A stretch of DNA of 64,000 nt from an uncultured delta proteobacterium (GCA_963785235.1 CAWAUM010000010.1:96001-160000), one strand, 5' to 3'; shown: positions 19,323 through 43,200, counted from the first letter of the stretch. The notes: generated from the letters alone by a model not told the origin. Made by a program: numbers and translations.

Positions 19323-19336
19323 TCGTTTTTTACCCT

Positions 19337-25800: not shown

Positions 25801-26234
25801 TCGGGCCTGAATATGACATACTGGTCATAGATGTTCGCCATCATGGCGCTGAACTGGTAGAGCTTCATGCCCGCGGTGTCGCCCTGGAGGTAGTCCCTGA
25901 TCCGGCTGAAGCCGCCCAAGCCCAGGAGCCCGGGCAGACAGTCCATGATGCGCAGCGTCATGGCATCCTTTTCGAACAGGGCGGGCTGTGTGAACCCCGG
26001 CAGGATGCGCGAGAACATGTCCAGCACAAAGGCATTGGGAAACGGCCATTTGACGTTCGCGCACACGCCACTGCTGCGCGCCAACTCCATGGAGAGCCAG
26101 CGCTGCATGCCGCGGCTCTGCACCACGATGACCTCGGGGGCCAGAGGTGAGGAGAGCGGCTCGGATAGAGACGCAGCAAGGGCCTGTGAAAGGACCTCGA
26201 GCCGGTTGCTCTCAATGAGTCTCAGGCCTGACAA
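22893..26234 (-). CDS. recC: Exodeoxyribonuclease V gamma subunit RecC; several apparent frameshifts
   Basis: SNRLEVL, IVVQSRGMQRWLS, HSCHSPMREVEVL, VTFCSMLPMRSIPF and FFRNPARFFL across successive fragments. Confidence 0.9.
25057..25125. repeat. REP doublet (69 bp) inserted in frame in recC
   Basis: gtcgtccccgcgaaggcggggacccag ... ctggattcccgcttccgcgggaatgac; translates as VIPAEAGIQVLSESLGPRLRGDD. Confidence 0.85.
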
Positions 26235-26327
26235 CAGACGCCTCCCACCATAGAATTATAGTGTGAGTAGTATAGCATGGATGGGGGTTGTCGGGAGTGG
26301 GAAAATGTTGTGGATAATTCCTTGGAG

Positions 26328-26384
26328 TTAACTGGGAGTTAACTGGGTTTAACTGGGGTTTAACTGGGGACGGGTTCACATTTC
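26328..26384. repeat. Four tandem ttaactggg units running into a GGGGACGGGTTC motif
   Basis: ttaactgggag ttaactgggt ttaactggggt ttaactggggacgggttcacatttc. Confidence 0.8.
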
Positions 26385-26390
26385 CACAAA

Positions 26391-27518
26391 TTATGTCGAG
26401 GTGTTTCCATCCGGTTGTACGAGTTCTTCCACAAGAGGATCGGTCGTCACATATTCATCCGAAGCATCTTTGAGGAGATTCGGAGGGAAGACCTTGATGA
26501 TGGCCCTGCCCCTCCGGTAAGCCCTGGGTGTCGATCCGGTCCAGCGTCTGAACGCATGATTGAACGCGCTCTGCTCGGAAAAGCCCAGCAGGAAAGCCAT
26601 GTCGATGAACGACACTTCCGGGTCCTCCAGGAGTGCGTGCACCAAATCCTTCCTCGCCCGGTCGAGCAGCTCTGTGAAGGTCGTGCCCTCTTCCTTCAGC
26701 TTCTTCTGCAAACTCCTCACGCCCACGGCCAGCTCCTTTGCCACGGCATCGATGGTGGGGCGCCGGCCGTTCATCTTTGAGAGCGTCTTCATCACCCTAT
26801 CCGACCAGGTGTCCGGGAGGTACATGTCATGGATCAGGCCCTGCGCATACCCCTCCAGCGTCTTCAGCAGCCCGGGGTCGGCCGCACGCACGGGCCGGGC
26901 TAGGTCCTCCACGGCAAGGACCAGGGCGCTCTCCTTCTGGCTGAACCTGAGCGGCGCCCGGAAGATCCGCGCATGCTCGGACACGTCATCGGGCCGTCCA
27001 TACCCGAAACGCACCTCCACGGGCCTGCACGAATCTTCCGTGAGGCGTACGAACACGGAATTCAGGACGCACAAGAGCGCCTCATCGGCATGACGGCCGA
27101 ACCGCACGTCCTTCTGTGTGATCTCCCATCCCAGCAGTGCTTGGCCCTGCCCCGACACGATCCTCGGGCGCAAAGCGTCGTTCATGAGGTTGTGGTACCT
27201 GGCCAGCGCATCCAGCGCGCTGCCCACGGTGGGGCAGTTCATCACCACCACGAAGAGGATCTGGCTTGTCGTGACGTACTGCAGCTCTTCGGCAAAGTGC
27301 AGGCCGAAGTCCTTGTCCCCTGACAGGGAGGCGACCTCGTTCCATACCCTGTTGAATACATCCCCCCTTACCCTCGCCACGTGAACGTCCGGCAGGGATA
27401 CATCCAGCCCGGCCGCAGCGAAGACGGCCTGCGCGTCGATGCCCTTGCCGGATGCATAGGCGGACAGCATCCTGAGCAAGGTGCTTGATATGGTGGCGGT
27501 TCTTTCCTGGGCCTGCAT
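26391..27518 (-). CDS. AraC family transcriptional regulator (OruR/ArgR-like N-terminal domain)
   Basis: C-terminal HTH: RSLQKKLKEEGTTF...AFLLGFSEQSAFNHAFRRWTGSTP. Confidence 0.9.
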   Translation of the reverse strand: MQAQERTATISSTLLRMLSAYASGKGIDAQAVFAAAGLDVSLPDVHVARVRGDVFNRVWNEVASLSGDKDFGLHFAEELQYVTTSQILFVVVMNCPTVGSALDALARYHNLMNDALRPRIVSGQGQALLGWEITQKDVRFGRHADEALLCVLNSVFVRLTEDSCRPVEVRFGYGRPDDVSEHARIFRAPLRFSQKESALVLAVEDLARPVRAADPGLLKTLEGYAQGLIHDMYLPDTWSDRVMKTLSKMNGRRPTIDAVAKELAVGVRSLQKKLKEEGTTFTELLDRARKDLVHALLEDPEVSFIDMAFLLGFSEQSAFNHAFRRWTGSTPRAYRRGRAIIKVFPPNLLKDASDEYVTTDPLVEELVQPDGNTST

Positions 27519-27629
27519 AATTTCGTGGATTATCAATTAATTTTCGTCAAAAGACAAGAATACTCGGTTCCAGACCGGCTATAACGCCTTCTAGATATTT
27601 CCATACCAGTGACACGAAAGGAGAAAACC

Positions 27630-28136
27630 ATGAGCGAACGGAACATACCAGTGAACAGGAGAGTGCACTGCAACCACACCATAGAGATCGAGGCGCCTGC
27701 GGAGAAGATCTTCCCGCTGCTCTGCCCGGTGGCGGAGTACGACTGGATCGACGGCTGGGACTGCAGGCTCGTGTATACCGGAAGCGGAGTGAACGAGGAA
27801 GGCTCTATCTTCACTGAGGAAATCATGGGGCCCGTACTCGCAGGTTCGGCCGCGACCTCAACTTGGGTCACCAACCGCTATGACGTGGAGAACCACCGGA
27901 TATGGTTCGTCATCTTTATTACCGACCTGGCAGTGGTCAGGTACGATGTTGCACTCATCGAGAAGAAAAGCAGCCTGACACGCGTGGAGATGAACTTCGA
28001 GATCAGTGCCATGGACGAAAGGATCGGCGGCCTGGGCGATGAAGAAATCAGGACGCGCCTCATGACCATCGTGGCGTTTCTCTCGGCGGCACTCAAGCAC
28101 TACTGCGAGACCGGGGAGATGATGAAGGCGGCATGA
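27630..28136 (+). CDS. Hypothetical protein, SRPBCC/START-like
   Basis: IEIEAPAEKIFPLLCPVAEYDWIDGW N-terminus and C-terminal helix; RBS aaggag. Confidence 0.6.
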   Translation: MSERNIPVNRRVHCNHTIEIEAPAEKIFPLLCPVAEYDWIDGWDCRLVYTGSGVNEEGSIFTEEIMGPVLAGSAATSTWVTNRYDVENHRIWFVIFITDLAVVRYDVALIEKKSSLTRVEMNFEISAMDERIGGLGDEEIRTRLMTIVAFLSAALKHYCETGEMMKAA

Positions 28137-28165
28137 TTCAGTGCAGACAGGAAAAGGATAAGGCT

Positions 28166-28582
28166 ATGCAGACCAGGATCACGATCAAGGTGCGCGGGTA
28201 CCACGCCGACGCCTTCGGGCATGTGAACCATGCGCGGTACCTGGAGTTCCTCGAAGAGGCCAGGTGGTCGTACTGTGAAGAGAACGGCATCATTGAGCGC
28301 CTCTTCTCGGCGAAGCAACTATTCCACGCCACGGTGAGTATAACCGTCAACTACAGGAGGAGCGCCGTGCCGGGAGACTCCCTCCTGATCGTTACCAGCG
28401 TATCCCAAAGGGGCGAACGGAGCTATACCATGAGCCAGCGGATCTTCCTGGGAGAGACCGACACGCTCGTTACCGATGCCGAGGTGACGAGCGTGCTGCT
28501 GGACAGGGCCGGTGTTATTGTGCCGGTCGATGACGATGTCATGCGCATATGGCCGGACCTCTTGGACTGCCCGGGGCCATGA
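28166..28582 (+). CDS. Acyl-CoA thioesterase (YbgC/4HBT hotdog family)
   Basis: VRGYHADAFGHVNHARYLEFLEEAR motif. Confidence 0.85.
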   Translation: MQTRITIKVRGYHADAFGHVNHARYLEFLEEARWSYCEENGIIERLFSAKQLFHATVSITVNYRRSAVPGDSLLIVTSVSQRGERSYTMSQRIFLGETDTLVTDAEVTSVLLDRAGVIVPVDDDVMRIWPDLLDCPGP

Positions 28583-28831
28583 GGAATGAATACGGGGTCT
28601 ATTCATTCCGATCCGGTCCGAAGATCGTCCGATACTCTGATACAGTAGATGCGAGGAGTCTGATTTCTGACATCATCACAATCCTCCTGAGAAATACTAT
28701 TTCAGTATTTCTGAAACCGATGCAGCACAATTCAGGGTAATGCGCATCCCAGCCTTGGGCGCCAGGATCAATAAAGGGTCAGGTATTTTTTTCAAAGACA
28801 ATACTCTACCCCTTTTCTCTGGATTCTCTTG

Positions 28832-29050
28832 CTATGCCGCCGGCTTCCAGTTGAAACTCAGCCTGCGTCCGCTTGCTGCACAGTCCCTCAGGTACAGGTT
28901 GATCAGGGTCTGGTAGGGGATGCCGGATTCATCGGACAGATCCTTGAAATACTGGATCGTCATTTCATCCAGCCGTATAGTCACCTGCTTTTTCAATCGT
29001 TTGGCATACGGATTCCGCTTGGCATTTGAAAAGTCATATTCCTTTCTCAT
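28832..29050 (-). CDS. BrnA/CopG-like antitoxin
   Basis: MRKEYDFS...NPYAKRLKKQVTIRLD...GIPYQTLINLYL. Confidence 0.85.
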   Translation of the reverse strand: MRKEYDFSNAKRNPYAKRLKKQVTIRLDEMTIQYFKDLSDESGIPYQTLINLYLRDCAASGRRLSFNWKPAA

Positions 29051-29139
29051 ATTCTCCACCTCTTGATGTACCCGATACCATGCTTGTGTCTGTTCGCCCT
29101 GTTCTTGTTTTCATCCCACTCAATTCGTAATGCATTCAT
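29047..29139 (-). pseudogene. BrnT-like toxin remnant with internal deletion (30 aa)
   Basis: MNALRIEWDENKNRANRHKHGI followed directly by GYIKRWRI*; the stop overlaps the antitoxin ATG (ATGA). Confidence 0.75.
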
Positions 29140-29277
29140 ACATCATTTATAACTACATTGGCTTTACATTGCGAGTTTAACGACAAAAAGGGGACAGATT
29201 GATTTTTCTCGATTGGGCAATGGTTTGATCTGTTCTAATTGTCCCCCCCCTGTCAAGGACTGGCCCCCTTGCCTCTC

Positions 29278-30309
29278 TCAAGCCGGCCGATACCCGGTAA
29301 ATGCATAATATTTGTTGCCCGGTATAAGATCTGTCGCGCAATTGCGTTCAAAGCCAGCTTCTGACAACTGCTTCAGCATCTCATCCTTATCTGGAAGCCT
29401 CCCCCAGCCCTTGGTCGCTGCATGAATCAGATTCACAAGCTCAAACTCGATACTGCCGTTCCTGCATCCGGTGGTCAGAAGGATTCGGCCATTGGGCTTG
29501 AGAAGTTCCCGCAGATGTCTGAACAGCTCAATGCGCTCTTCGACCGGAAAATAGTATATATTGTTGTACAAGGTAACTATATCGAACAACCCAGGGTCAC
29601 GGAAATTTCTCACATCTTCAACCACTATTTTCACGCGGTCTTCCAAACCTTTTGTTTGAACATTGCTGCGGGCTATTTCTGCAACCTGCGAATCAAGCTC
29701 CAATCCGAGCGCATTGAGCCTGTTGTTCTTGTCCGCTGCATACATAACATAACCCGCATGCCCGCAACCCACTTCAAGCAATCGAGTATGTCCTGATATG
29801 GGAAAACTGCGATCGATCAGTTCAAACACAAAGGGCTCAAGGGTTCGACTTGACCGGGCGATGAGATCACCGTATTCGCTGTGCTGATAGGCAGGGTCCC
29901 AGACGAGCCCCTGTTCCAGTTTTCCAGGTGTTTGCAGAATATAGAGATGATGAAGGCCCGCAACTTCACGAACCAGGGCGCGTATCGCATCGTTTTCAGG
30001 GGCGGCCAGTTTTTTTGCCAGAAAACCCCGCAGAGAGTATCCCGCATCATCCTTTTTCAGCACACCCAGGCGGACACCCAGTCCGAGCCAGGCCTCGGTT
30101 GCATTGCAGAGAGATGGGTCTTTCGCGAATGCACCGGTGAGGCTGCCAAGCGGAACAGGACCACGGGATAACTTTCCAAGAATGACGCTGTCTGCCAATG
30201 AAGCAAAGAAACACAGACGGTAAAAAGAGGTAAACAGCATCTTGAACCGGAGCAACAGCAGCAATCTTCCGCCATTTATCAATGACGCAACTGTTCGTAA
30301 GTTCATCAT
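29278..30309 (-). CDS. Class I SAM-dependent methyltransferase
   Basis: LLEVGCGHAG motif I, FDIVTL, LKPNGRILL. Confidence 0.85.
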   Translation of the reverse strand: MMNLRTVASLINGGRLLLLLRFKMLFTSFYRLCFFASLADSVILGKLSRGPVPLGSLTGAFAKDPSLCNATEAWLGLGVRLGVLKKDDAGYSLRGFLAKKLAAPENDAIRALVREVAGLHHLYILQTPGKLEQGLVWDPAYQHSEYGDLIARSSRTLEPFVFELIDRSFPISGHTRLLEVGCGHAGYVMYAADKNNRLNALGLELDSQVAEIARSNVQTKGLEDRVKIVVEDVRNFRDPGLFDIVTLYNNIYYFPVEERIELFRHLRELLKPNGRILLTTGCRNGSIEFELVNLIHAATKGWGRLPDKDEMLKQLSEAGFERNCATDLIPGNKYYAFTGYRPA

Positions 30310-30441
30310 CCCTCCTTCATACAATGAACCCCGACCGCTTCTATGTATGCGGGGTTGGAGACAGTACCGTGCTGATGGACAGGAGCGGGAAGATCCCATT
30401 GAGGATTCCCCCGCCCTCATGTCCATACATGTCTTAGCAGC

Positions 30442-31092
30442 TCAGTAGGTCCAACCGGCGGCAAAGGCGATCAGGTTCATTATGATGGGCACTGAATAGA
30501 AAAAGACCAGGAGGCCGATCTTGGCCTTCATGGTCTTTCTCGTGATCACCCATATGGCTGCACAGAAGAAGTGGAAGTACCCGATGAGGAAGATCAGGGG
30601 GATGCCCTTGAGCGAGAGATACCAGTAGGGATACTCCCACACCAGGTGGCCGCCCATGTTCAGCAGGCACTCCACGAAGACGCAGAATACCGAATAGCCG
30701 ATGGCCCAGAACCACATCTCCGGGATACCCAGGATCTTCACCTTCTTGTTCTCGGTGAGGGTGTGGTAGAAGATGATGCCCACGATGGCGAACATGAACA
30801 TGATCTCGATGTTCCAGCCCACCATGGTGCGCAGGGCCGTATCACCCGGTGTGGTCCAGAATGCGCTGCGCTGGGTGAAGTGCAGCACCCAGCCGTTCCA
30901 GCTCTCGTTGAAGAAATCCACCCCGAAGATGGCGGCACCGGAAAATACCGCATTCCAGTTTCCGTTCTCCTTGGCCAGTTTGATCTCCTTGGTGTAGATG
31001 TAGATAACGATGGCCAGAAGCGGAATGATGTACCACTTGATCATGGTAAGGTCCCTGAGTCCGTTAAGTGCCTGCAGTGTAGCCTCGGTCAT
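30442..31092 (-). CDS. Hypothetical integral membrane protein
   Basis: 216 aa, about six hydrophobic segments, RBS agagggg, downstream of a TetR gene. Confidence 0.7.
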   Translation of the reverse strand: MTEATLQALNGLRDLTMIKWYIIPLLAIVIYIYTKEIKLAKENGNWNAVFSGAAIFGVDFFNESWNGWVLHFTQRSAFWTTPGDTALRTMVGWNIEIMFMFAIVGIIFYHTLTENKKVKILGIPEMWFWAIGYSVFCVFVECLLNMGGHLVWEYPYWYLSLKGIPLIFLIGYFHFFCAAIWVITRKTMKAKIGLLVFFYSVPIIMNLIAFAAGWTY

Positions 31093-31138
31093 GGATATAC
31101 CCCCTCTTTGTGTTTTTATTTCATGCCATCAATGGCAG

Positions 31139-31738
31139 TCATACCGGAAGATCCTGGGGTGTCCTGCATATACCCCGCAGGACTATCTTCATTCCCTCCT
31201 CGTACATGCGCGCAGCGGAGATCCCCTCCGACTTCACATACCGCTTGATGAGAAACATGATGTAGATGGAGAAGAAAAGTTCAGAGGTGTGGTCCACATC
31301 AACAGGCAGGAAGCGGCCCTCGGCGATGCCCTGGGCAATGATGTTCTTGATGAGCTGCATGGCTCCGAGGTTGATTTCGTAAAAGCGGTCTTCCCGGGGG
31401 GTCAGGGTGAAGATGCTGGGGTCTTTTATCAATACGGCGCGCAGGTCCTCATGGTCCACGAGGTATTCGAATGACAGCTTCGCCATGACCGAGAACTTCC
31501 CGACCACATCGTCCACACCGGCAACGGCTTCGGCTACCGTTTCGCGCCATTGCTGCAGGGCTAGGCTCACGGCCTTTTCGTAGAGGTCACGCTTGCCGGA
31601 CACGTAGAAGTAGATATTCCCCTTGGTCATACCCACTTCTGCAGCCACATCATCCATGGTGGTCTTCTGGTACCCGAAGCGGGCGAACAGCCTCAGTGAG
31701 GCTTGAAAGATCTCATTTTGCTTTTGGTGCTTGTCCAT
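31139..31738 (-). CDS. TetR/AcrR family transcriptional regulator
   Basis: LFARFGYQKTTMDDVAAEVGMTKGNIYFY HTH. Confidence 0.9.
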   Translation of the reverse strand: MDKHQKQNEIFQASLRLFARFGYQKTTMDDVAAEVGMTKGNIYFYVSGKRDLYEKAVSLALQQWRETVAEAVAGVDDVVGKFSVMAKLSFEYLVDHEDLRAVLIKDPSIFTLTPREDRFYEINLGAMQLIKNIIAQGIAEGRFLPVDVDHTSELFFSIYIMFLIKRYVKSEGISAARMYEEGMKIVLRGICRTPQDLPV

Positions 31739-31748
31739 GGGCACCTTC

Positions 31749-31785
31749 AATTAATTGACTAATTGACTCAATTAGTCAATTAATT
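31749..31785. promoter_or_regulatory. 37-bp palindrome, probable TetR operator
   Basis: aattaattgactaattga-c-tcaattagtcaattaatt: perfect 18-bp arms about 10 nt upstream of the tetR ATG. Confidence 0.7.
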
Positions 31786-31960
31786 CAAATTATCCCTCCT
31801 GTCAACCGATATCCAAATTCCTGGTCTTTTTTTCCAAGATTTTTTGAAGCTCTCCGGAAATCCAGAACGGGATCATGGATATCCGGCAGGGGTTTGGGGA
31901 TCAGGACTAGAAAGGGATGAACAATAAGAGGACAGAATTATTTTTCACAATGCCAAAAGA

Positions 31961-32167
31961 CTATTGATGCAATTCTATCCAGTAGAGGGCCTCATCAGGG
32001 GTATCAAATTCCTTTCCATTGATCTCTTCTTGTCCATCCTTTGCAATCGATGCCTTATATCTAATGCTTGCCAAACCTTTCACCTTGCGGATATGACCAA
32101 TGAACCTGTTATCATTATAAACCTGAAACAGTGAACCATCACCTTTTGAGGATTTCAGTCTGATCAT
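31961..32167 (-). CDS. Small hypothetical protein (68 aa)
   Basis: ORF with aagga RBS and a plausible globular composition. Confidence 0.5.
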   Translation of the reverse strand: MIRLKSSKGDGSLFQVYNDNRFIGHIRKVKGLASIRYKASIAKDGQEEINGKEFDTPDEALYWIELHQ

Positions 32168-32358
32168 TTTTATTCCTTCTATGCAGGAATCTATTCAGAC
32201 CATATTTCCATAAGAATATCAAGTCATTTGAACCAGGAAAGCCCCTTGGAACCTCGTACAGAAAGACCCCCTCTTGATTTCAGACCAAAAGGAATCAGAG
32301 AGGTTTTCACATACGCCGACACCGGGGGCGCATTCATCTCCATAACCCTATCTTCCGT

Positions 32359-33753
32359 TCACCTTCCTGCTAGCGCCCGGTATCGATAGTACTCCATCAT
32401 CCTCGCATACGCCCGCAGTGCCCTCTCCGGCGTCGGGTATACAGGGATTCCGTGTTCGTGCAGGGGCTTCAGCAGCTCGGCCTGGTCGATCTGGACGAAC
32501 CCGGGATAGGCAATGGCCATGATATGTTTCTCCGTTTGCCCCTTTGCCCGGATGAGCCCTTGTATATAGTCTGCGCTCATGTCGGTTGATGCCCCGCCTC
32601 CGAGCATGACCACGGCATCCACCCCCGGGTCAGCCAGGATAATTTCAAGTGCCTCCTGATAGAGCCTGAGGTCGAACGATGCGCTCAGCCCCACGTCGAT
32701 GGGGTTTGCCCATGATGTCCCGGTGGGCGGGAGCAGAGCTTTGAGCCTGTGGATGCTCTCGTTGCAAAGGTCCGCCATAACAAGGCCGTTCCTCTCCACA
32801 GCATCGGCTGCGGACACCGCAGGACCGCCCGGTCCGGAGACGATGGCCACCCTGCCCTCTCCGCCTGGGCCCATATGATAGAAGGCCATGGCAAGGTCGC
32901 ACATCTCCTCGATGTCGCACACATCCAGGATGTGAAACTGCCTGAAAAGGCTCCTCCACAACTCGCCCTGTCCGGTCAGCGCCCCGGTATGGGATGCGGC
33001 AGCCTTCGAACCGGCTTTTGTGAGCCCCACCTTCCACATGATCACGGGCTTTTCAGGTGTCGTTCGCCTTCAAGGCATCAAGCAGCCTGCCCATCTCGCG
33101 CACGCCCTCGCAGTAGGTGCAGATGACAGCGGTCTGCTCATCTTTGCCCATCCATGCCAGCAGGTCTGCCAGTTCGATGTCCGCACCGTTGCCGCTGCTT
33201 GCAACGTGGCTGAAGAAGAGCCCTTTGGCCGAACAGTAATTCACGAACAGGTTCACCAGTGAACCGCTCTGGCTGATAAACCCCAGCTTCCCCACAGTCC
33301 TGGGCATGCCCGGAAAAGGGGCGATCCGCGAACCGGGAGAGTATATGCCCATGCAGTTGGGCCCCAGGATGCAAAACCCCCCCTCGTGCGCAATGCGCCT
33401 CATGCGCGCCTCGTCGTCGCGACCCGCAGTCGTCTCCCAGCTCGGAAAACCCCGAGGTGTAGAGGATCACGGCCTTGACCTGTTTTCTTGCGCATTGTGC
33501 CAGCACATCAAAGACCGTCTCTTTCGGCGACATGATGATGACCAGGTCCACCGCACCTGGCACCTCATGGAGGTTGGGGTATGCCTTGTAGCCGTCGATC
33601 TCGGTTGCACTCGGGTGGATAAGGTATATGGGCCCGACTGAAGCCCTGGTCGAGAAGCCCCAGGAAGAAGACCTTGCCCGCTTTGAGTCCCCGGGGGATG
33701 CCGTAGAGCGCTATGGATTCCGGAGAAAAAAGGCTTTGAATCGTGTCATGCAT
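32359..33753 (-). CDS. Acyl-CoA synthetase (ADP-forming) alpha-type / CoA-binding protein; apparent frameshifts
   Basis: SLFSPESIA, ILGPNCMG, FISQSG, AAASHTGAL (phospho-His) and NPIDV across fragments. Confidence 0.8.
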
Positions 33754-33906
33754 AACAACCCCCCGTTCACAGGAACTGGAACAATCCTGTCTGCACATAT
33801 ATGCTCTAAAGGAACATGCATGCACATAGTATCACCAGATCAGATGTGCATCAATGCATGGACATGAAATGGTCAGGTTCTCTTCTCCGACAAAAAGGTG
33901 GCAGGT

Positions 33907-35214
33907 TTATTTTTCAGTCTTGGTCACCGGGAGTTTGAGCCTTCCCTTCAGAGAGAGCTGCCTTGCGCCATGCCGGTAGCTGATGTACTGGAAGGCCCAA
34001 CGGATGAGGATAATAAGCCTGTTCTCAAAATTGATGAGCAGGAGAAGGTGGATAAATAACCAGAGAAGCCATGCGAAATATCCTCCAAAATGCCATCTGC
34101 CGATAGCTGCAACGGCAGAGTTGCGCCCTATGACTGCAAGGGTGCCCTTGTCAAAATATCGAAACGGCCTGTGCCCGATCTTCCCAGCAAGACGGCCGAT
34201 GATGATCCCGGCCACATATCGTCCTTGCTGGGTCGCCACCGGGGCAAGGCCCGGCAGCGGCGTGCCGCTTTTACCTGTGCAATGCGCCAGGTCTCCTATG
34301 ACAAAGATCTCCGGATGAGCGGGCACGCTCAGGTCAGGGGCCACCATGACACGACCCGAAGGATCTAGCGTAGCCCCTGTCTTTTCCGCCAGGTTCCGGC
34401 CAAGGGGGGAGGCCTTCACCCCTGTTGCCCACAACAAGGTCCTGGCAGGTAGACGCCGGGTGCTGCCCTTTCTGTTCAAGGTGATCCCTTTTTCATCCAT
34501 ATCCACAACCCTGGCGCCGGTCATGGGTTTTACACCTATACTGATGAGGGATTCTTCAGCCTTTCTGGAGAGATCTGCCGGATAGCCCGGCAGTATCCGA
34601 TCAGCGGAATCGAGGATGATTATCTGCGACTCTTCCGGATGGATGGAGCGGAATTCATCCTTGAGGGTATTCTGTGCAATCTCGGCAATCATCCCTGAAA
34701 GCTCAATGCCGGTGGCTCCACCTCCTATGACAACAAAGGTGAGCCACTCTTTGCGTAGATCAGGGTCTGTTTCACGCTCTGCGACCTCGAAGGCATAGAA
34801 GATCCTGTTACGGATCTCGGCAGTGTCTTCAATAGTCTTCAGCCCAGGGGCAAACTGGGCCCATTCATCATTTCCGAAATAGTGGTTTTCCATGCCGGCG
34901 GCTACAATCAGGGTGTCATACTCCATGGCACCATCTGCCAGGATGACCCGTTTGCCTTCTGGATCAAAGTCCACAACCTCACCCAGGAGGACCTGGGTAT
35001 TCTTCTGCTTCCTGAGAATATGCCGTAATGGAGCCGTGATCTCCGACGGACAGAGCAGCCCTGTTGCAACCTGGTAGAGAAGGGGTTGGAAAAGATGGTA
35101 ATTCTGCTTGTCGATGATGGTTATTCTCCCAGGCAAATTACCCAGGGTACGCACTGCCGACAGGCCGCCGAACCCGCCGCCGATGATAACAACATGTTGT
35201 CCTGTGCATTCCAT
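33907..35214 (-). CDS. ndh: Type II NADH dehydrogenase (FAD-dependent)
   Basis: VVIIGGGFGG, HLFQPLLYQVATG, VIGGGATGIE, FVIGDLA, PGLAPVATQQG. Confidence 0.9.
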   Translation of the reverse strand: MECTGQHVVIIGGGFGGLSAVRTLGNLPGRITIIDKQNYHLFQPLLYQVATGLLCPSEITAPLRHILRKQKNTQVLLGEVVDFDPEGKRVILADGAMEYDTLIVAAGMENHYFGNDEWAQFAPGLKTIEDTAEIRNRIFYAFEVAERETDPDLRKEWLTFVVIGGGATGIELSGMIAEIAQNTLKDEFRSIHPEESQIIILDSADRILPGYPADLSRKAEESLISIGVKPMTGARVVDMDEKGITLNRKGSTRRLPARTLLWATGVKASPLGRNLAEKTGATLDPSGRVMVAPDLSVPAHPEIFVIGDLAHCTGKSGTPLPGLAPVATQQGRYVAGIIIGRLAGKIGHRPFRYFDKGTLAVIGRNSAVAAIGRWHFGGYFAWLLWLFIHLLLLINFENRLIILIRWAFQYISYRHGARQLSLKGRLKLPVTKTEK

Positions 35215-35253
35215 TGTCTTCTTCCTCCCCCTTTAGGCGAATGAAAATTGTGA

Positions 35254-35319
35254 AAATTGGGGACGGGTTCATATTTCAAGAGTTTGGGGATAAGTTTGTG
35301 GTGTGCCCGTCCCCAATTT
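35254..35319. repeat. Inverted pair of GGGGACGGG motifs (14-bp perfect arms)
   Basis: aaattggggacggg (35254-35267) and cccgtccccaattt (35306-35319); 35258-35277 matches 26365-26384 at 19 of 20 positions. Confidence 0.8.
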
Positions 35320-35353
35320 CCTCCAAGGGGTTTACCCCTGGAACCTCTCTTCA

Positions 35354-35524
35354 TTATTCAAGCAATGTTTCAACCTTGAATTTCAGGGCTTTTTCATTTT
35401 TCTCATTAAATTCCTTGCCCTTTTTTTTGCTCATTTCCCGGATCTGATCGATCATTTCCTTGTATGAATCAAAAACTACCGGGCCTTTGCTGTACTTATC
35501 ATCTTCCAGAATATAGCGCGCCAT
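35354..35524 (-). CDS. Small hypothetical protein (56 aa)
   Basis: ATG with aaggggg RBS; charged and helical. Confidence 0.5.
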   Translation of the reverse strand: MARYILEDDKYSKGPVVFDSYKEMIDQIREMSKKKGKEFNEKNEKALKFKVETLLE

Positions 35525-35911
35525 GTTTACACCCCCTTTCACTGTTTTACCTGTTCTCCCCCTTATCGCAGACTACTTTTTGTGTTCCTGCACTGTGTTC
35601 TTCCCAAACCGTTAACGAGCCTCATAGGAATGTATCTGAGTCTCAACTATATCGAAGTAATTATCTCTAAAGGTTGCAGGTCTTCTCTTTTTTCTCTCAA
35701 GGGAAGACCATCATGATGGTTGAGGGTTGCACACCAGTGCGTTCATAATACTATAAGCTGTTTCACTTCTAAATCAATATCATCACATATTCTTGTCCCA
35801 ACTCTTTAACAGAAAAAGGACAGTTTTTTTCGGCTTTTTCATATACTATGCCTCTATCTGCTTCTATCTTTTCCGGGCCTTCGGCATGGAATTAGACCTT
35901 TGCCCTGCCAT

Positions 35912-36145
35912 CTATTCGGTTTCAATAATAACGCCACATTCCTCACATTGATAGCGGGTCTTTTCATGATCTGCAGCCAGGACTTCCTCAAAGTCATCAC
36001 GCTTAATGCCGTGTACTTCAAAACATTCCGGGCAATACCTTCCCTGCAGCTCATCGGCGGTAATGGTCAGATGGCAATGCCGACAGCGCAACCTGTTTTT
36101 CTGTGGGGGTAGAAGGACCAGATGGAGATGTCTGCACGTTGTCAT
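35912..36145 (-). CDS. Small Cys-rich (zinc-ribbon-like) hypothetical protein
   Basis: CRHC, CPEC and CEEC motifs. Confidence 0.6.
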   Translation of the reverse strand: MTTCRHLHLVLLPPQKNRLRCRHCHLTITADELQGRYCPECFEVHGIKRDDFEEVLAADHEKTRYQCEECGVIIETE

Positions 36146-36378
36146 ACGACAAGCCTTTAAAGAATTAACCGCGGTGAAGCAAGTGTTCATTTATGAGGTA
36201 AGAGGGTGAAACAGAGTTCATATCCTGGTAATTGGGGGAACGGAGTCCTGGGGGACAGTAGCAAAGAATCAGGACAATGTTGAGTCCCCTCTTGAACCGA
36301 GCCTTCTGGCCGTTATTATTTCATCATGCTCGATTTGCCAATTTTATTGGCGCATAAACAGACTTTGAAGGAGGACCG

Positions 36379-36828
36379 ATGTTCTATTTTCAACTGCTGG
36401 ATCTAATAAAAGACAATGCGAATGAGTTGACGAGGCGCTTGTGCAAAGACATACTCAGCATGGAGGAGACCAAAGGATACCGCAAGTTCTCCTATGAGGT
36501 CATGTATGAACGTGTCTTCGATGTGTACAACAAGCTCAGTTCCTGGTTAGGCACGGATGATCACACCACCGGCGAGATCAGGAAGGTATATACCGAGCTT
36601 GGAAGAAAGCGGTACCGTGAGGGCCTTCCTCTTAATGAAGTGGTCCTGGCATTCATGCTTATTAAAAGGCATCTCTGGGTCTTCATGCAGGAGAAGCAGT
36701 TCTTTGAAACCACTTATGAGTTCAGCCAGGCCCTTGAACTCAATAACAAGGTCGTCCTTTTCTTTGACAGGGTGATTTACTTTGTAACCATGGGCTATGA
36801 AGAGGAGCTTCTCAAGAATAAGGGGTAG
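36379..36828 (+). CDS. Hypothetical all-alpha protein (RsbRD N-terminal/globin-like)
   Basis: YTELGRKRYREGLPLNEV...FFDRVIYFVTMGYE pattern; strong RBS aggagg. Confidence 0.6.
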   Translation: MFYFQLLDLIKDNANELTRRLCKDILSMEETKGYRKFSYEVMYERVFDVYNKLSSWLGTDDHTTGEIRKVYTELGRKRYREGLPLNEVVLAFMLIKRHLWVFMQEKQFFETTYEFSQALELNNKVVLFFDRVIYFVTMGYEEELLKNKG

Positions 36829-36906
36829 CAACAGGCGAAGGGAAACCGGGATCGGAGCCGATTATAATAAATCGACCCCGACCCTTTTTTTATACATTGA
36901 CACAAG

Positions 36907-38349
36907 ACCCGAAACCCATATCTTTGATACCATGGATAACTGCTCAACTGTGGACCCACATGCTCTCTGAGCTCCTCACTTATTTCACGACGCCCTGTCC
37001 GCGGTATGTCCGCCGTATGGGTTATCTCTATGAGGCCATCGCCATGCGCGAAAGGCATCGGCGCCGCCGTGCCGACTGGCAGCAGCACATTGCCAGCACC
37101 AGGCGATGCGTCCTTTCCGTGGCTCGCAGTTGCCGGAACAGGGAAAGGGCCGTTGTCCTCGGGGCGGGCCTTTTACTGGATGTACCGCTCAATGAGCTTG
37201 CATCGATGTTCCGCGAGGTCGTCCTTGCAGACATCGTGTTCTTACCGGAAATACGCAGGCTTATAAACAGCTATGGCAATGTCAAACTCCAGCAATGCGA
37301 TGTGACGGGTATTGCGGAACTGCTTTTTCAAAACGTACAATGCGGCCGACAGGCCCTCCCTTCAGATACCGCGCCCGTACTTCCTGCGGTCGAAGCCGGC
37401 ACGGGGTTGGTCGTTTCGCTGAACCTCCTCTCCCAGCTCTGTGTGATACCAGGCAGATTTGCTCTCAAACATATGCCCTTGCTCCATGAAAAATACCTCT
37501 CCGACTGGTGCGGACGGATTATGGCATTGCATTATGCAGCCATGGCATCGCTGCCGGGTGATGTATGCCTCATTGCTGATCATGCATTTGCCAAATATGA
37601 CAGGCAAGGGCACATCGCAGAAAGAGGTACCCGAAACCCATATCTTTGATACCATGGATAACTGCTCAACTGTGGACCCACATGCTCTCTGAGCTCCTCA
37701 CTTATTTCACGACGCCCTGTCCGCGGTATGTCCGCCGTATGGGTTATCTCTATGAGGCCATCGCCATGCGCGAAAGGCATCGGCGCCGCCGTGCGGACTG
37801 GCAGCAGCACATTGCCAGCACCAGGCGATGCGTCCTTTCCGTGGCTCGCAGTTGCCGGAACAGGGAAAGGGCCGTTGTCCTCGGGGCGGGCCTTTTACTG
37901 GATGTACCGCTCAATGAGCTTGCATCGATGTTCCGCGAGGTCGTCCTTGCAGACATCGTGTTCTTACCGGAAATACGCAGGCTTATAAACAGCTATGGCA
38001 ATGTCAAACTCCAGCAATGCGATGTGACGGGTATTGCGGAACTGCTTTTTCAAAACGTACAATGCGGCCGACAGGCCCTCCCTTCAGATACCGCGCCCGT
38101 ACTTCCTGCGGTCGAAGCCGGCACGGGGTTGGTCGTTTCGCTGAACCTCCTCTCCCAGCTCTGTGTGATACCAGGCAGATTTGCTCTCAAACATATGCCC
38201 TTGCTCCATGAAAAATACCTCTCCGACTGGTGCGGACGGATTACGGCATTGCATTATGCAGCCATGGCATCGCTGCCGGGTGATGTATGCCTCATTGCTG
38301 ATCATGCATTTGCCAAATATGACAGGCAAGGGCACATCGCAGAAAGAGG
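36907..38349. repeat. Tandem direct duplication with a 722-bp period
   Basis: 36907-37627 matches 37629-38349, apart from two substitutions seen (37073/37795 and 37522/38244). Confidence 0.95.
36960..37649 (+). pseudogene. 3'-truncated copy of the downstream hypothetical gene
   Basis: Near-identical to 37682..38482 up to HIAERG, then stops within the start of the second repeat. Confidence 0.75.
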
Positions 38350-38482
38350 ATCGACACTATACGGCCTGGACCTGCCGGAACCGGACGACTCCTGGACATG
38401 GATGGTTGCCCCTTTCGGAGAGGAATCGCAATACCTCTCCAAGGAACTTCATGTGGGTGCATGGTATATGCAAAGGGGATGA
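37682..38482 (+). CDS. Hypothetical protein with methyltransferase-like Rossmann motif
   Basis: AVVLGAGLLLDVP...VVLADI motif. Confidence 0.65.
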   Translation: MLSELLTYFTTPCPRYVRRMGYLYEAIAMRERHRRRRADWQQHIASTRRCVLSVARSCRNRERAVVLGAGLLLDVPLNELASMFREVVLADIVFLPEIRRLINSYGNVKLQQCDVTGIAELLFQNVQCGRQALPSDTAPVLPAVEAGTGLVVSLNLLSQLCVIPGRFALKHMPLLHEKYLSDWCGRITALHYAAMASLPGDVCLIADHAFAKYDRQGHIAERGSTLYGLDLPEPDDSWTWMVAPFGEESQYLSKELHVGAWYMQRG

Positions 38483-38579
38483 GGGGGTGCTTGCACAGTT
38501 CAAGACAAAGGGCTACAATCTTGTGCAGGCTTAAACGCAATGTCTTTTCATGGAGAAGATCCTACTTAAGGGGGGCGTC

Positions 38580-39806
38580 ATGAAGATAAAAACCATAGAA
38601 ATGTTTCATGTTTCCATCCCGCTGAAAGAAACCTTCTGGCCCACATGGATACCGGGCTATCCGCAGACGCACAACCGCTTTACCCTGATCAAGTTAACCA
38701 CGGACGACGGCATCACCGGTTATTCTGCCGGTACGGCCATGGGCCATGAGCGCGAAGGCCTGGGCGACCTCATCGGCAGCTACCTCATGGGCGCAGACCC
38801 CACGGATATTGACCGTGTCCAGGGGCTGCTCAAACAGGCAGGCTTCCTTGGCTGGAGAAACTTCTGGATCGAGCCCGCATGCTGGGACATCATGGGAAAG
38901 AGTCAGGGTAAGCCCGTCTATGAGCTGTTGGGCGGGAGGGCGCGAGCCATAGATGTCTACCTTTCCACCGGAGAGATGCACGACCCTCACAGAAGGGTTG
39001 ATGAACTCCTGGCCATGAAGGACCGTGGATTCAAGACCGCCAAGCTCAGGGTGAAGAATGTGAGCCTCCATGAGGACATCAGGCACATCGAGCTCGTGAG
39101 CAAAGGCCTCTCGGGCGCCATGAAGCTCGGGGTGGATGCGAACCAGGGCTGGCTCGTCACCATCGTGGACAAAATCCCTGCATGGGACCTTGCACGCGCC
39201 AAAAATTTCGCCGATGCATGCGCAGACTGCGGCATCGAATGGCTCGAAGAGCCCCTTGATTCCCGCGACTACGACGGCAATGCCGCGCTCAAAAAGATGT
39301 CGAAGGTGAAGATCTCGGGTGCCGAGATCAACTACGGGTGGGACGAGATCAAGATCATGTTGGAGAAGGACTGCTTTCACGTGTACCAGCCTGACGCCAC
39401 CTTTGCCGGAGGAATTGCGCAGGTGAAGAAGGTCCTCGACGCGTGCAAGCTGAAAGATCGTCTCTTCAGCCCCCATACCTGGACCAACGGCATCGGTTTT
39501 TACATAAACTGGAACATGGTGCTTGCGGACAGAGAGAATGCGCTACCCCTGGAATACCCGCTCGAAGAGCCTTCATGGATCCCGGAGTTCCGGGAGGGGA
39601 TCATCGAGCCCATCATCCCGGACAAGGAGGGCCGGCTGCAGCCCTTTACCAGGCCGGGACTCGGCTTTGAGATCAATGAGAGGCTCCTGAAGAAATACGG
39701 CCGGCGCTTTTTCAAGCTTACCGAAACCGGCCTCAAGTTCAAGGTGATCCGGGAAAAGGGCCTGAAGGCAGCGCTGAACCTCAAAAAGCGCAAGGAAGAG
39801 GGCTAA
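38580..39806 (+). CDS. Mandelate racemase/muconate lactonizing enzyme family protein
   Basis: ACWDIMGK, KxK (KTAKLR), VDANQ, WLEEP, GAE, QPD metal ligands. Confidence 0.9.
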   Translation: MKIKTIEMFHVSIPLKETFWPTWIPGYPQTHNRFTLIKLTTDDGITGYSAGTAMGHEREGLGDLIGSYLMGADPTDIDRVQGLLKQAGFLGWRNFWIEPACWDIMGKSQGKPVYELLGGRARAIDVYLSTGEMHDPHRRVDELLAMKDRGFKTAKLRVKNVSLHEDIRHIELVSKGLSGAMKLGVDANQGWLVTIVDKIPAWDLARAKNFADACADCGIEWLEEPLDSRDYDGNAALKKMSKVKISGAEINYGWDEIKIMLEKDCFHVYQPDATFAGGIAQVKKVLDACKLKDRLFSPHTWTNGIGFYINWNMVLADRENALPLEYPLEEPSWIPEFREGIIEPIIPDKEGRLQPFTRPGLGFEINERLLKKYGRRFFKLTETGLKFKVIREKGLKAALNLKKRKEEG

Positions 39807-40145
39807 AAATGGGATCAAGATGTTAGGGCAGATTGCGACCTGATCCAACTTTTGCCCATCGATACATAAAGAATGCAACAAAATCTGAACCGAAATCTCC
39901 CTTGAGAAATGCCCCTGCGCATTGACTTTCCTCAATATCCGATTATTTTATGCTGTGTATTTAATGTTTCTCTTGGATTCCCGTGTAATTCAATTTCACA
40001 CGTTATCGTTTGATATTTTTTGGGCTGGCGAGAAGGGCCTCCCTTCGCTTTTCACCAAGGTCACACCTGTGTGACGGCCTCAGAGAAAGGTGGTCCGGTC
40101 CCGGCATGCAATCCACAGTGGTACGCCGGGGAAAGGGGATTTACC

Positions 40146-41324
40146 ATGGGCGAACAGATAATGATGATCCACGGGATGTGGGGAGGACCATGGGTATGGA
40201 ACAACTACAAACAATTCTTCGAGTCAAAAGGGTATCGCTGCCTCACGCCCGCACTGCGGTTCCATGATAAGGAATCAACGGATTTCTCGTATGACCAATT
40301 GGGTGAAACGAGCCTGCTGGATTATGCCAAAGACCTTGAGCATGAGATATGTCAGCTCCATGAGAAACCAATACTCATGGGGCACTCCATGGGCGGCCTT
40401 CTCGCCCAGATACTCGGGAGCCGCGGCCTGGCAAAGGCCCTTGTGCTCCTGACGCCTGCATCACCGAGAGGGATCATGGCCCTGAAGCTATCCGTGATCA
40501 GGAGCTTCTGGAGCACCCTCACAAAACCGGGCTTCTGGAAAAAGCCCATGCTGCAGACCTTTGATGAGGCGGTCTACTCCATGCTGCAGATGATGCCTGG
40601 TGAAGATCGTAAAGCACTGTACGATAAATTCGTTCCGGAATCAGGCCGGGCAGGCTTTGAGATCGGGTTCTGGCTGCTGGATGGAAATCGCGCCACTGAG
40701 GTCAATGAGTCCAGAGTCACCTGCCCCTGTCTGATAATCTCAGGGAAACTCGACAAGATTACCCCACCTTCGGTTGTCCGGAGCATGGCACACAAATACC
40801 GGACAGTATCCACGCTCAAGGAATTTACACACCATGCCCACTGGGTTCATGACGAACCAGGCTGGATCGAGATCGCCGAGTACTGCGCTGAATGGCTGGA
40901 TCAGGTCCTCGTTACCATGTCCGAAAGACCCCTGCCAATCGCAATACCTCACGCAAGACCGGCGGACAGGGTAAAAAAGGCCGTATCGGGCTACACTCAG
41001 AAATGGAAACACACGAAGGGAGTGGAACACCGCACAGGCAGGAGGACAGAGATGAACCTGGTGGTCGATGCGAGCATCCCCTGCAGCGGTAATGCCCAGT
41101 ACTATGAGCTCGGATATACCATGAATATCTGCCAAGGCGGGATATACCTGGATACTGTCGCACCCCTGGAAGAAGGCATGTATGTGAATGCGAACCTGCA
41201 TACCGGGAAGGCAGAGAAACCCCTGTGGGTACAGGGCCGTGTGGTGAGAGCTGCAGGCAATGGCATGGCTATGGCATTTTCCCATGTGGAGCCCGAGAGA
41301 TTGAACCGGCTACTGCTCATATAG
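40146..41324 (+). CDS. Alpha/beta hydrolase fused to a C-terminal PilZ domain
   Basis: IHGMW, GHSMGG nucleophile elbow, DKIT, HAH; C-terminal RTGRR and NICQGG. Confidence 0.8.
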   Translation: MGEQIMMIHGMWGGPWVWNNYKQFFESKGYRCLTPALRFHDKESTDFSYDQLGETSLLDYAKDLEHEICQLHEKPILMGHSMGGLLAQILGSRGLAKALVLLTPASPRGIMALKLSVIRSFWSTLTKPGFWKKPMLQTFDEAVYSMLQMMPGEDRKALYDKFVPESGRAGFEIGFWLLDGNRATEVNESRVTCPCLIISGKLDKITPPSVVRSMAHKYRTVSTLKEFTHHAHWVHDEPGWIEIAEYCAEWLDQVLVTMSERPLPIAIPHARPADRVKKAVSGYTQKWKHTKGVEHRTGRRTEMNLVVDASIPCSGNAQYYELGYTMNICQGGIYLDTVAPLEEGMYVNANLHTGKAEKPLWVQGRVVRAAGNGMAMAFSHVEPERLNRLLLI

Positions 41325-41435
41325 CTCAAGGGTGAAAGGGGACATCTTCTTCGTGTAGAAATCCAATCTGCACCCTTTTCGGACTGAACAACCTCTTCGG
41401 TGGTCTCATGCAGGCATTCTTTTTTGTAGTTCCTG

Positions 41436-41771
41436 TTATTTCACCATCACGAGCAGCATCTTGAACCTGGATACGGCCTTCAGTGCATGCGGCTTATGGG
41501 CCGGCATGATTATCATCTCTCCTGCCTGGACTGTATGCGGTGTGCCTTCAATAGCGACCTCGGCCGTGCCTTCCAGGACATGAACCAGGGCGTCGAAGGG
41601 TGCAGTATGCTCACTGAGGCCTTCACCCTCGTCAAAGGCAAAGACCGTCACCGTGCCCGCAGCTTTCTTGATGATCTCCCTGCTCACAATGGATTGGACC
41701 TGGTATGCGGCAAGGTCTTTCAGGTTCATGGCCTTTGCCAGGAGCTCTTTCTTCACACCCTGTTCTTCCAT
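41436..41771 (-). CDS. Cupin domain protein
   Basis: FAFDEGEGLSEHTAPFDA...MPAHKPHAL. Confidence 0.9.
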   Translation of the reverse strand: MEEQGVKKELLAKAMNLKDLAAYQVQSIVSREIIKKAAGTVTVFAFDEGEGLSEHTAPFDALVHVLEGTAEVAIEGTPHTVQAGEMIIMPAHKPHALKAVSRFKMLLVMVK

Positions 41772-41792
41772 GTCGTTTCATCCTTTCTTGGT

Positions 41793-42329
41793 TCAATCTA
41801 GAGAAGCTGCCAGTAATGCTTCCAGATCCGCATGATCACCTGCAAACATGTTGCGGTGCTGGAAAATGAGTTCATTGCCGGGGCCCAGGACAAAGACTCC
41901 TCCCTGCTGCCAGAGATCGCCGTCCGTGCGTCCCTGTCGGAAACCATTTTTCATGGCCCGGATGCCTTGGATCAAGGATGCAGGGCCCAGTGTTTTCAAG
42001 AGACCGCGTTGAAGCCTGAAGGCCCTGTACGCACTGAGGTCCTGGTTCACATACATCTCGCCGGTAAAATGGAGCTTTTTGACGAAATGCACCGCACCAC
42101 CGGGACTGCCGCTCCCGATGGCTACCAATGCTATTCCGGCCCCCTCCAGTTTTCCCTTGATACCCATGAGGGCAGCAGCCTGCTGCCGTGCAAACATTCA
42201 GCCGAAATGGCGGAGGAAGGCAAGCACGATGCGCCTCTCCTCCCACAGTGACTCGAGGGCTACTTCCCTTTCCTTAAGAGACTGCACCGTTACACCTGCG
42301 ACAAGTGGCTTCAGTTCCTCATACGTCAT
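41793..42329 (-). CDS. Peroxiredoxin-like (AhpC/TSA_2, PRXL2/SelU-like) protein, probable selenoprotein (UGA at 42198-42200)
   Basis: RBS aggagg plus ATG at 42329; reads IVLAFLRHFG-UGA-MFARQQ in frame into ...QQGGVFVL; SECIS-like hairpin follows. Confidence 0.8.
42171..42187 (-). promoter_or_regulatory. Putative bacterial SECIS element
   Basis: mRNA GGCAGCAGGCUGCUGCC hairpin starting 10 nt after the in-frame UGA, with G-containing apical loop. Confidence 0.65.
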
Positions 42330-42519
42330 TTACCCCTCCTGTATCCCGTATATCTTATAAAGTGGATGTCTCCTTTTGCAAGCCACACCTGGCAATGCTC
42401 TTTAAATAAATGACACCGAAGTTGCTTTTTGCATATATCGCATTATTAATAAAGAATCCCAAAATATAATTCCTTGAAACTGCTCCTGAGACCAAGACCC
42501 AACCTGAGGAGGACAAAAG

Positions 42520-43035
42520 ATGAGAACAGTATGCCTGTCCCTAGCTTTGGCAATACTCATGACAGCCCAGACTCAGATTGTCTATTCCAGACCCTTGATG
42601 AGGTCAGCCAGCACAGCAGAGCTGATCATCTACCTGCAGCCGAATCTTGACCCGGAAATTGCCGCTATCCATGCAAAGTACATTGATAAATTTGCAAGCA
42701 AATGGAAGGTGGACCGGCTGAAGGTGATCAGCATAACCCACCAGGAATCGAAGTTCAGGCCCGATGCGCAAAGTTCCGTAGGCTGCATAGGCGCAATGCA
42801 GGTGAATCCGAGGGCTCACCAGGACAAATTGAAAAGGAGGGGAATTACCTGGCGTGACCTGTATTTCTTAAGGAACAACTATGATATCGGCTCGGAAATA
42901 TTGCATGACTGCCTGAAGTCATCACGAACCTTTGATGAGGCCCTGAAAAAATATAGCGGTGGGAGCAGGAAATACACAAAAGAGGTGAAAAAGATCTATG
43001 GAATGCTCTATCGATGCGGGCTCATGACAAGCTGA
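42520..43035 (+). CDS. Lytic transglycosylase (SLT domain) protein, exported
   Basis: Signal peptide; HQESKF catalytic Glu, GCIGAMQV, ALKKYSG. Confidence 0.8.
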   Translation: MRTVCLSLALAILMTAQTQIVYSRPLMRSASTAELIIYLQPNLDPEIAAIHAKYIDKFASKWKVDRLKVISITHQESKFRPDAQSSVGCIGAMQVNPRAHQDKLKRRGITWRDLYFLRNNYDIGSEILHDCLKSSRTFDEALKKYSGGSRKYTKEVKKIYGMLYRCGLMTS

Positions 43036-43200
43036 TGTCCCGGACAAAAAGGGGGGTCGTTTGAAATTTGTTCCTGCACCTGAACCATGTATATCTTTCA
43101 CCTCTATCATGCTGGGCATCCAGTCCGAATCGTTTGCAGGATTTTCTATGTAGCTGAACACTTTCCTTACAGGCGCTTTGATTTATTGAAATTAGTGCAG

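Follow-up and report, generated by a model that had tools for sequence, protein, structure and literature searches.

The stretch of DNA analysed here, called the window throughout, comprises 64,000 nucleotides (contig C10, positions 96001-160000) of the genome of an uncultured delta proteobacterium (genome G000; 3.91 Mb in 13 contigs), and the subject of this report is a family of short repeat units, of two related types designated T1 and T2, found in the part of the window just past recC. The first 26.2 kb of the window carry the liv genes, a large gene and recBCD in an order that is the same in four relatives (G008:C2, G014:C12, G002:C1 and G003:C4), and homology to relatives drops out at approximately 26.23-26.31 kb, just past recC, which marks the end of genus-wide synteny. 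Past 26.3 kb, the common modules (a CoA-ligase-like pair, AhpC_TSA2, a cupin, SLT, an MR_MLE racemase, TetR with a 216-aa open reading frame (ORF), and a 149-aa ORF) differ in order and combination among the relatives. On the right side, the closest relative for the window, G011 (88-96% DNA identity over aligned blocks), is collinear with the window from 36 to 64 kb, and the Hcp/RND and ior/paa blocks sit elsewhere in more distant relatives. As synteny ends near 26.3 kb, the modules are reordered and the right-hand blocks are placed elsewhere in distant relatives, the accessory patchwork that an earlier note on this DNA had described beyond recC is a genuinely variable region. The same note had listed one motif family at about ten junctions of the patchwork and had proposed that it guides the integron-like stacking of gene cassettes, possibly by a Y1/HUH transposase associated with repetitive extragenic palindromes (REPs).

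Scanning the window with matrices for both unit types at a threshold of 12 bits allowed the 11 listed sites to be sorted. The listed sequences were found where the note had placed them, and its near-identical pairs agreed at the positions counted (24/28 for 29181-29208 vs 33888-33915; 19/20 for 26365-26384 vs 35258-35277). Membership of one family held for 5 of the 11 sites, with one borderline site at background level and 5 non-members. Six clear loci, all on the plus strand, were found within 26.3-35.3 kb, and these are given below with a tandem array (found with Tandem Repeats Finder, TRF) that adjoins the leftmost:

26328-26363, plus strand: stutter array of TTAACTGGGGT, approximately 3.9 copies (TRF period 11, score 63), running into the 5' end of the T1 unit that follows
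26364-26384, plus strand: T1 unit CTGGGGACGGGTTCACATTTC, 31.6 bits; solo, with the stop codon of araC 7 nt away, at the left margin of a block present in G000 only
28766-28793, plus strand: T2 unit GATCAATAAAGGGTCAGGTATTTTTTTC, 27.9 bits; 39 nt past the brnA stop codon
29181-29208, plus strand: T2 unit CGACAAAAAGGGGACAGATTGATTTTTC, 36.4 bits (G011 orthologue 33.0); 70 nt past the methyltransferase stop codon
31919-31946, plus strand: T2 unit GAACAATAAGAGGACAGAATTATTTTTC, 33.4 bits; preceded at 15 nt by the stop codon of a 68-aa ORF, and not among the listed sites
33888-33915, plus strand: T2 unit CGACAAAAAGGTGGCAGGTTTATTTTTC, 34.4 bits (G011 orthologue 32.0); overlapping the ndh stop codon
35257-35277 (plus strand, 31.3 bits) and 35296-35316 (minus strand, 12.7 bits): inverted T1 doublet with a decayed partner, resembling a REPIN (30.4 bits in G011)

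A Poisson estimate of our own gives approximately 0.06 loci for a random stretch of 9 kb, compared to the six observed, and the cluster is therefore not due to chance. Outside 26-36 kb, the only window matches of at least 12 bits were at 43042, 7777 and 24173, the latter two weak and within coding sequence; the statement that the motif is absent from the liv, recBCD, RND and ior/paa operons stands for clear units, with these weak matches as its only qualification. Apparent differences from G011 at 31830-32020 and 43036-43198 are 100-N scaffold gaps and were discounted; they are therefore uninformative on the presence of units there, and this includes the T2 site at 31919.

The two related unit types are T1, GAAATYGGGGACGGGTTCAYATTTC, and T2, ACAAAAAGGGGACAGATTTATTTTTC, and the T2 core is identical to T1 at 15 of 19 positions. 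The copies at 26365 and 35258 have the string GGGGACGGGTTCA as their core; G000 contains this string 7 times, in similar contexts throughout, and the T1 consensus from 56 copies in five genomes is (g)AAAT[C/T]GGGGACGGGTTCA[C/T]ATTT(c). A T1 position-weight matrix built on 12 seed copies gave 25 genome matches of at least 18 bits, compared to 2 in a locally shuffled genome, and its top-scoring matches were all intergenic (by crude gene calls, as for the other intergenic counts given here). T2 was found by a repeat search of 26-43.5 kb, in which the copies at 29181, 31919 and 33888 were grouped as family D2, and its matrix was built from these three window copies and one copy from contig C1. This matrix gave 10 genome matches of at least 18 bits, compared to 0 in the shuffle, and added the copy at 28766; the scores of the window copies are partly by construction, as the matrix is partly trained on them, and at 12 bits it works at background level (343 genome matches compared to 157 in the shuffle). 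T2 is not a training artefact, because relatives carry it by consensus pattern (at most 3 mismatches; 19 copies in G002, 12 in G003, 11 in G018, 6 in G011 and 6 in G000, with 0-1 per genome for the reversed-pattern control) and because it adjoins sister transposases, as described below. The spread of T1 is patchy, with 16 copies in G000, 25 in G018 and 8 in G003; of the 31 genomes searched, 22 have no copy (reversed control 0-1 per genome).

A census of G000 gave 27 T1 matches at a threshold of 17 bits (24/27 intergenic) and 19 T2 matches at a threshold of 18 bits (12/19 intergenic), which together make up approximately 26 loci. Most copies are solos, the remainder being local clusters and inverted doublets that fold into hairpins. 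The doublet at 35257-35316, which is preceded by TGAAAATTG x2 (TRF), forms a long hairpin when folded as RNA (z = -3.26; 2 of 200 shuffles as stable) and was the only one of the folded sites to be more stable than its shuffles. Further inverted doublets were seen in G000 at C3 242408/242445 and C6 2202/2229, and in G003 and G004.

A search of the G000 genome for the Pfam domain Y1_Tnp (PF01797) yielded two genes, one on C1 and one on C11. The C1 gene (221429-222154, minus strand) encodes a 241-aa product, P0001, in which PF01797 matches at 221771-222109 with 47.4 bits, and which passes the NCBIfam equivalog model NF047646, REP-associated tyrosine transposase (RAYT), with 85.9 bits against a cut-off of 80. 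The HUH motif NHFHL and the tyrosine motif RYIEMNPVRA were conserved in an alignment of P0001 with its G002 and G018 homologues and the C11 paralogue. The P0001 gene is bracketed by inward-facing T1 units, one overlapping its 3' end (221410, plus strand) and two lying 94-119 nt before its start (222248 and 222273, both minus strand); this bears out the link to a REP-associated transposase that the earlier note had suggested, and answers its advice to look elsewhere in the genome for a RAYT gene flanked by the same motif. The closest homologues of P0001 are also found with units of the family: that of G002 (C10:9597-10292, plus strand, 44% identity) has inward-facing T2 units on both sides (9512, plus; 10284, minus), and that of G018 (C3:61446-62141, minus strand, 47% identity) has T2 at its 3' end (61383 and 61426, both plus) and a further T2 at 64031 (minus). 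This outer G018 unit lies 1.9 kb beyond the start of the transposase gene with several small ORFs between (C3:58000-67000, local positions 3446-6060), and the inverted units there may enclose passenger DNA. Around the G002 transposase, approximately 14 T2 units (10 plus, 4 minus) fill many of the intergenic gaps in 22 kb (C10:5000-27000), and the G000 counterpart of this stretch (C1:793-806 kb) has one T2 and one T1 only. The second Y1 gene of G000 (C11:76085-76612) encodes 175 aa, 36% identical to P0001, and with 72.8 bits falls short of the cut-off of 80 for the RAYT model. Most relatives have orthologue-like matches to it, and inspection of its flanks by eye showed neither T1 nor T2, no search having been made for repeats of its own.

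These data suggest, with a probability of about 0.8, that the real motifs of the patchwork are dispersed copies of the terminal inverted repeats (TIRs) of a small, "domesticated" RAYT-type transposase, that is, a REP-associated, IS200/IS605-like Y1 HUH enzyme. The transposase would nick and rejoin one DNA strand at the units, and would in this way place new units between genes, for the most part shortly after stop codons. Six copies would have gathered at 26.3-35.3 kb because the stretch past recC is flexible, recently rearranged DNA, which would tolerate units and may recombine at them. The repeat system has settled in a flexible part of the chromosome and may contribute to its rearrangement. 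As regards the transposase the earlier reading was right, and a speculative gene-capture array gives way to a concrete system with a named transposase gene, two unit types and a census in a poorly studied uncultured lineage.

The short tandem arrays, here called stutters, are found at the 5' edge of T1. In G000, 9 of 22 T1 copies were directly preceded by such an array with a period of 7-14 nt, compared to 10 of 2000 random intergenic positions and 2 of 34 T1 copies from G002, G003, G004 and G018. The counts were made with TRF, in preference to a gapless periodicity score, which is too crude for array units of varying length. Each array repeats the locus's own version of the first 8-13 letters of the unit, up to the G-run. 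Beyond the array at 26328-26363, examples in G000 are:

C10:206255 (array 206195-206255): stutter of GAAAAATTCGG, x5.2
C1:812166-812215: stutter array
C1:221387-221410: stutter array
C5:285946-285990: stutter array
C6:2170-2260: stutter array

In one metagenome contig, repeats of GAGAAATC also precede a T1 unit, at the point that corresponds to window position 33846. The stutters could have arisen through replication slippage or as a side effect of cutting and rejoining at the unit's 5' edge. In the tandem arrays described for REPINs the repeated piece is an entire REP or REPIN together with its flanks, unlike in the T1 stutter (PMC3116915), and an array of the T1 type is not described in those parts of PMC3733652 and PMC3116915 that were available for comparison. 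The stutter occurs almost only in the genome holding the matching transposase and is of interest for RAYT function.

Comparison with G011, after removal of the N-gaps, left three true differences in the window. The block 26326-28692, absent from its place in G011, consists of the stutter and T1 unit followed by araC (minus), SRPBCC (plus) and a 4HBT thioesterase (plus); its left border is the start of the T1 stutter and its right border (approximately 28692) has no unit. No close DNA match to this block was found in 51 other family genomes, with only araC matched at 72% in G060, and gain of the block in the G000 line would for this reason be the simpler reading. Metagenome contigs (approximately 96-97% identity) carry the araC block with another left neighbour, beginning inside araC at 26504. 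The second difference is the segment 28767-29164, which holds brnA (minus; Pfam BrnA_antitoxin) and a short brnT start, the reading frame 29060-29164 upstream of brnA being, as we read it, a putative cut-off start of a BrnT-like toxin. G011 has at this place approximately 2.8 kb of other DNA, comprising the rest of an XRE gene, another T2-like unit and a 551-aa ORF. The left border of the segment is the 5' edge of the T2 unit at 28766, where G011 homology stops, and it cuts an XRE/HigA-type antitoxin gene, intact in G011, to a 66-bp 3' remnant (28701-28766); the right border, where G011 homology resumes, lies approximately 16-20 nt 5' of the T2 unit at 29181. The third, 29499-30314, lies inside the methyltransferase gene, is missing from G011 and has no unit near. 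Public sequencing runs were used in the form of Logan contigs (best word share 0.38), in which two long skips (30471>35101 and 33026>35645) were set aside, as their short side was only 21-22 letters.

Several of these results, and some further ones, weigh against dispersed RAYT repeats as the explanation of the units. The proposal that gene gain or loss maps to motif positions was borne out in part, as the 6 junction ends against G011 include 3 at a distance of 0-20 nt from a unit, on its 5' side, and the others have no unit. When G000:C1:793-806 kb was compared with G002:C10, a unit of one or the other genome was found no more than 50 nt away from 4 of the 8 ends of non-collinear blocks. Such proximity exceeds what passive colonisation alone would predict, and is suggestive rather than proven, both regions having been chosen for holding units; block ends near units are also partly expected, because homology blocks often end close behind stop codons, which is where the units are found. 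The copies at 29181, 33888 and 35257 are present in both G000 and G011 and hence old. No transposition event was observed. The public runs are assembled contigs, which cannot show excision. A phmmer search matched no solved structure to P0001 at E <= 0.01. G000 has T2 copies and no T2-flanked transposase, and its T2 copies are therefore either relics or cross-mobilised. Finally, the single unit has no convincing palindrome and its consensus has no GTAG tag, so that it is not a textbook REP; a single-unit hairpin, GAAAT...ATTTC, was considered and dropped, as it would have 3 A/T pairs only (an AAT/ATT stem of 3 bp, formed by 43-45 of 56 copies) and no compensatory change or other covariation over the 56 copies.

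The nearness of units to junctions could also mean that the units guide gene capture: same-strand units would act as IS200/IS605 ends, the genes between them would be excised as a single-stranded circle and inserted beside another unit, cassette by cassette. All six window copies lie on the plus strand, which is the geometry a Y1 transposase would need, although the same bias is expected from lagging-strand targeting by this transposase family. Borders speak on both sides. Relative to G011 the brnA segment is bounded by T2 at its left and, with 16-20 nt to spare, at its right, and the DNA that replaces it in G011 includes a T2-like unit, but its left junction cuts the XRE antitoxin gene and looks like a deletion rather than a clean insertion. 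The G000-only araC block begins exactly at a T1 stutter, but its right end has no unit, and in the metagenome it switches its left neighbour inside araC, not at a unit. The 4 of 8 block ends near units in the comparison with G002:C10, and the 1.9 kb with small ORFs that the outer G018 unit sets apart from the transposase gene, would suit gene capture; both compared regions were picked for their units, and no segment with the same unit-to-unit borders was found elsewhere when the family genomes were searched with the araC-brnA segment. Each segment between units contains 1-3 genes, among them a TetR regulator with an operator-like palindrome as well as gene fragments, no unit stands at the variable junctions of 36-43 kb, and the same reshuffling is seen in G012 and G014, which have no units, and in G008 and G009, which have a single copy elsewhere. 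The likeness to an integron is that a repeat stands behind co-oriented genes at 28.8-35.2 kb and that the content between repeats varies between close relatives. The differences are that the contig has no integrase (of 5 PF00589 matches in the genome, the test for an IntI-type tyrosine recombinase, none is on C10), that the R''/R' boxes are missing (GTTRRRY is absent from both strands of the T1 and T2 consensus, as the earlier note had said of attC-type patterns), and that the segments carry their own regulator or gene fragments. Given no integrase or attC, gene fragments between units, a cut gene, unit-free junctions and reshuffled relatives without units, the gene-capture array was not accepted, and there is no good evidence for integron-like assembly of genes by the units. 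We regard gene capture by the units as improbable, and hold as equally doubtful the version in which T1 and T2 are working transposase ends, the patchwork beside recC arises partly by integrase-free single-strand cassette exchange and the 8-13-nt stutters are footprints of repeated cleavage and rejoining.

A role as selected terminators or other cis-regulatory sites, with a likeness that stems from convergence or from a common binding protein, would fit the distance of -8 to 70 nt between a stop codon and each of the four clear window T2 copies, as well as the reverse strand of T2, which ends in CCCCTTTTTGT; REPs too are described as lying mostly downstream of coding regions (PMC3733652). A scan for terminators, however, gave no site at any T1 or T2 copy, and the T2 contexts folded no more stably than shuffles (z = -1.83, -0.62, -0.37 and +0.69). 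T2 is oriented opposite to the upstream gene in the window and in the same direction at C1:796767 and at G002 5465, 13265 and 26818, and an orientation that is not fixed relative to the upstream gene argues against a terminator. Units bracket transposase genes, and orthologous copies in G000 and G011 differ at 5/28 and 3/28 positions, more than the surrounding DNA (approximately 6-8%), which argues against strong selection on them. The terminator reading was consequently rejected for T1 and T2, for which regulatory sites of any sort are very unlikely, and kept only for sites outside the family. Chance likeness of AT-rich and G-run intergenic sequences, with no family at all, would account for the 5 of 11 listed sites that fail both matrices and the one at background, and the string AAAGGGGWC occurs 83 times in the genome where approximately 60 would be expected (our own uniform-composition estimate). 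The excess of T1 and T2 over shuffles at 18 bits (25 vs 2 and 10 vs 0), the reversed-pattern controls and the units flanking transposase genes in three genomes refute chance for the T1 and T2 copies, and it holds only for the five non-member sites; for the family as a whole it has next to no probability.

The TIR reading of the units can be set beside known systems. IS200/IS605 elements are single-strand transposons of the Y1 HUH type that recognise their ends on the same strand. The present system has the same Y1 HUH fold (PF01797) and co-oriented window units that match such same-strand recognition; it differs in that the gene is single-copy, the mobile parts are short units and no TnpB partner was seen beside the P0001 gene. 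The units are a known kind of bacterial repeat, that of the RAYT/TIRYT system, and by its published descriptions the closest known kind is the TIRtron or TIRYT, in which RAYT-like genes are flanked by non-palindromic TIRs instead of GTAG-tagged REP stem-loops, some TIRs share GGGGWSAS, and moderately abundant families occur as singles, dimers and clusters (PMC3733652, Di Nocera et al. 2013). As in those descriptions, a Y1 HUH RAYT-like gene here has inverted repeats on both sides, which lack the form of REP stem-loops and are unrelated to GTAG REPs, GGGGACAG of T2 fits GGGGWSAS exactly and GGGGACGG of T1 is one letter off, and there are tens of copies as singles, dimers and clusters (PMC3733652). 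Unlike them, the units belong to another lineage, with two related types common to several genera, T2 units occur in G000 without a T2-flanked gene, and T1 has a stutter at its 5' edge (PMC3733652). The system resembles REPIN-RAYT systems, as these are described by Bertels & Rainey (2011, PMC3116915), in having one transposase gene per lineage flanked by its own repeats, hairpin-forming inverted doublets (here 35257-35316), extragenic copies and a patchy spread among relatives, and differs from them in its non-palindromic single unit without GTAG, its mostly solo copies and its low copy number of approximately 26 loci. Of what characterises REP/REPIN-RAYT systems, a RAYT-type Y1 HUH gene, inverted flanking repeats, hairpin doublets and multiple, mostly extragenic copies were found in G000, and a unit formed as a stem-loop with a GTAG tag was not. 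The little-studied TIRtron/TIRYT class with GGGGWSAS repeats is in this way extended to an uncultured lineage, and the units at several strain-level indel borders are of interest for RAYT function. If RAYT transposases did move flanking genes, this would be a new route of gene shuffling, which the present data do not show.

The listed sites that lie outside the family, together with two weak matches, are as follows:

28583-28609: non-member
35807-35834, plus strand: weak T2-like copy TAACAGAAAAAGGACAGTTTTTTTCGGC, 17.2 bits (G011 orthologue 20.4); near background and left uncounted, and not among the listed sites
36231-36292: non-member
36848-36890, plus strand: non-member; stem then U-run 3' of the 149-aa ORF, terminator-like (fold z = -1.45, not significant)
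39805-39853: non-member
41335-41379: non-member; hairpin between the convergent ABhydrolase-PilZ and cupin genes
43042-43069: borderline T2-like site, 13.1 bits, at background level

None of the five non-members has a match of at least 12 bits on either matrix. They are ordinary hairpins or terminator-like sequences, whose resemblance to the family consists only of a generic A-run, G-rich stem and T-run.

Some further features of the window were seen alongside. The recBCD stretch (18000-26000) has a G+C content of 61-66%, compared to 50-54% for the contigs of the genome, and crude gene calls are fragmented there. Two direct repeats of 300 nt (36907-37206 and 37629-37928; 100% identical, spacing 722 nt) cover two neighbouring ORFs of 250 and 278 aa without a Pfam match and are a recent tandem duplication; the G011 contigs break within this stretch (36907-37928). 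The CoA-ligase-like gene is present as two ORFs in different frames (32359-33045 and 33053-33403), whose G008 counterparts are in one frame and 9 nt apart, and a frameshift in the G000 gene is possible. Finally, a 21-nt inverted repeat at 31746-31788 (95% complementary, 1 nt between the arms), which is kept in G011, reaches from the DNA directly upstream into the start of the TetR gene (31139-31750, minus strand), and is likely to be a TetR operator.

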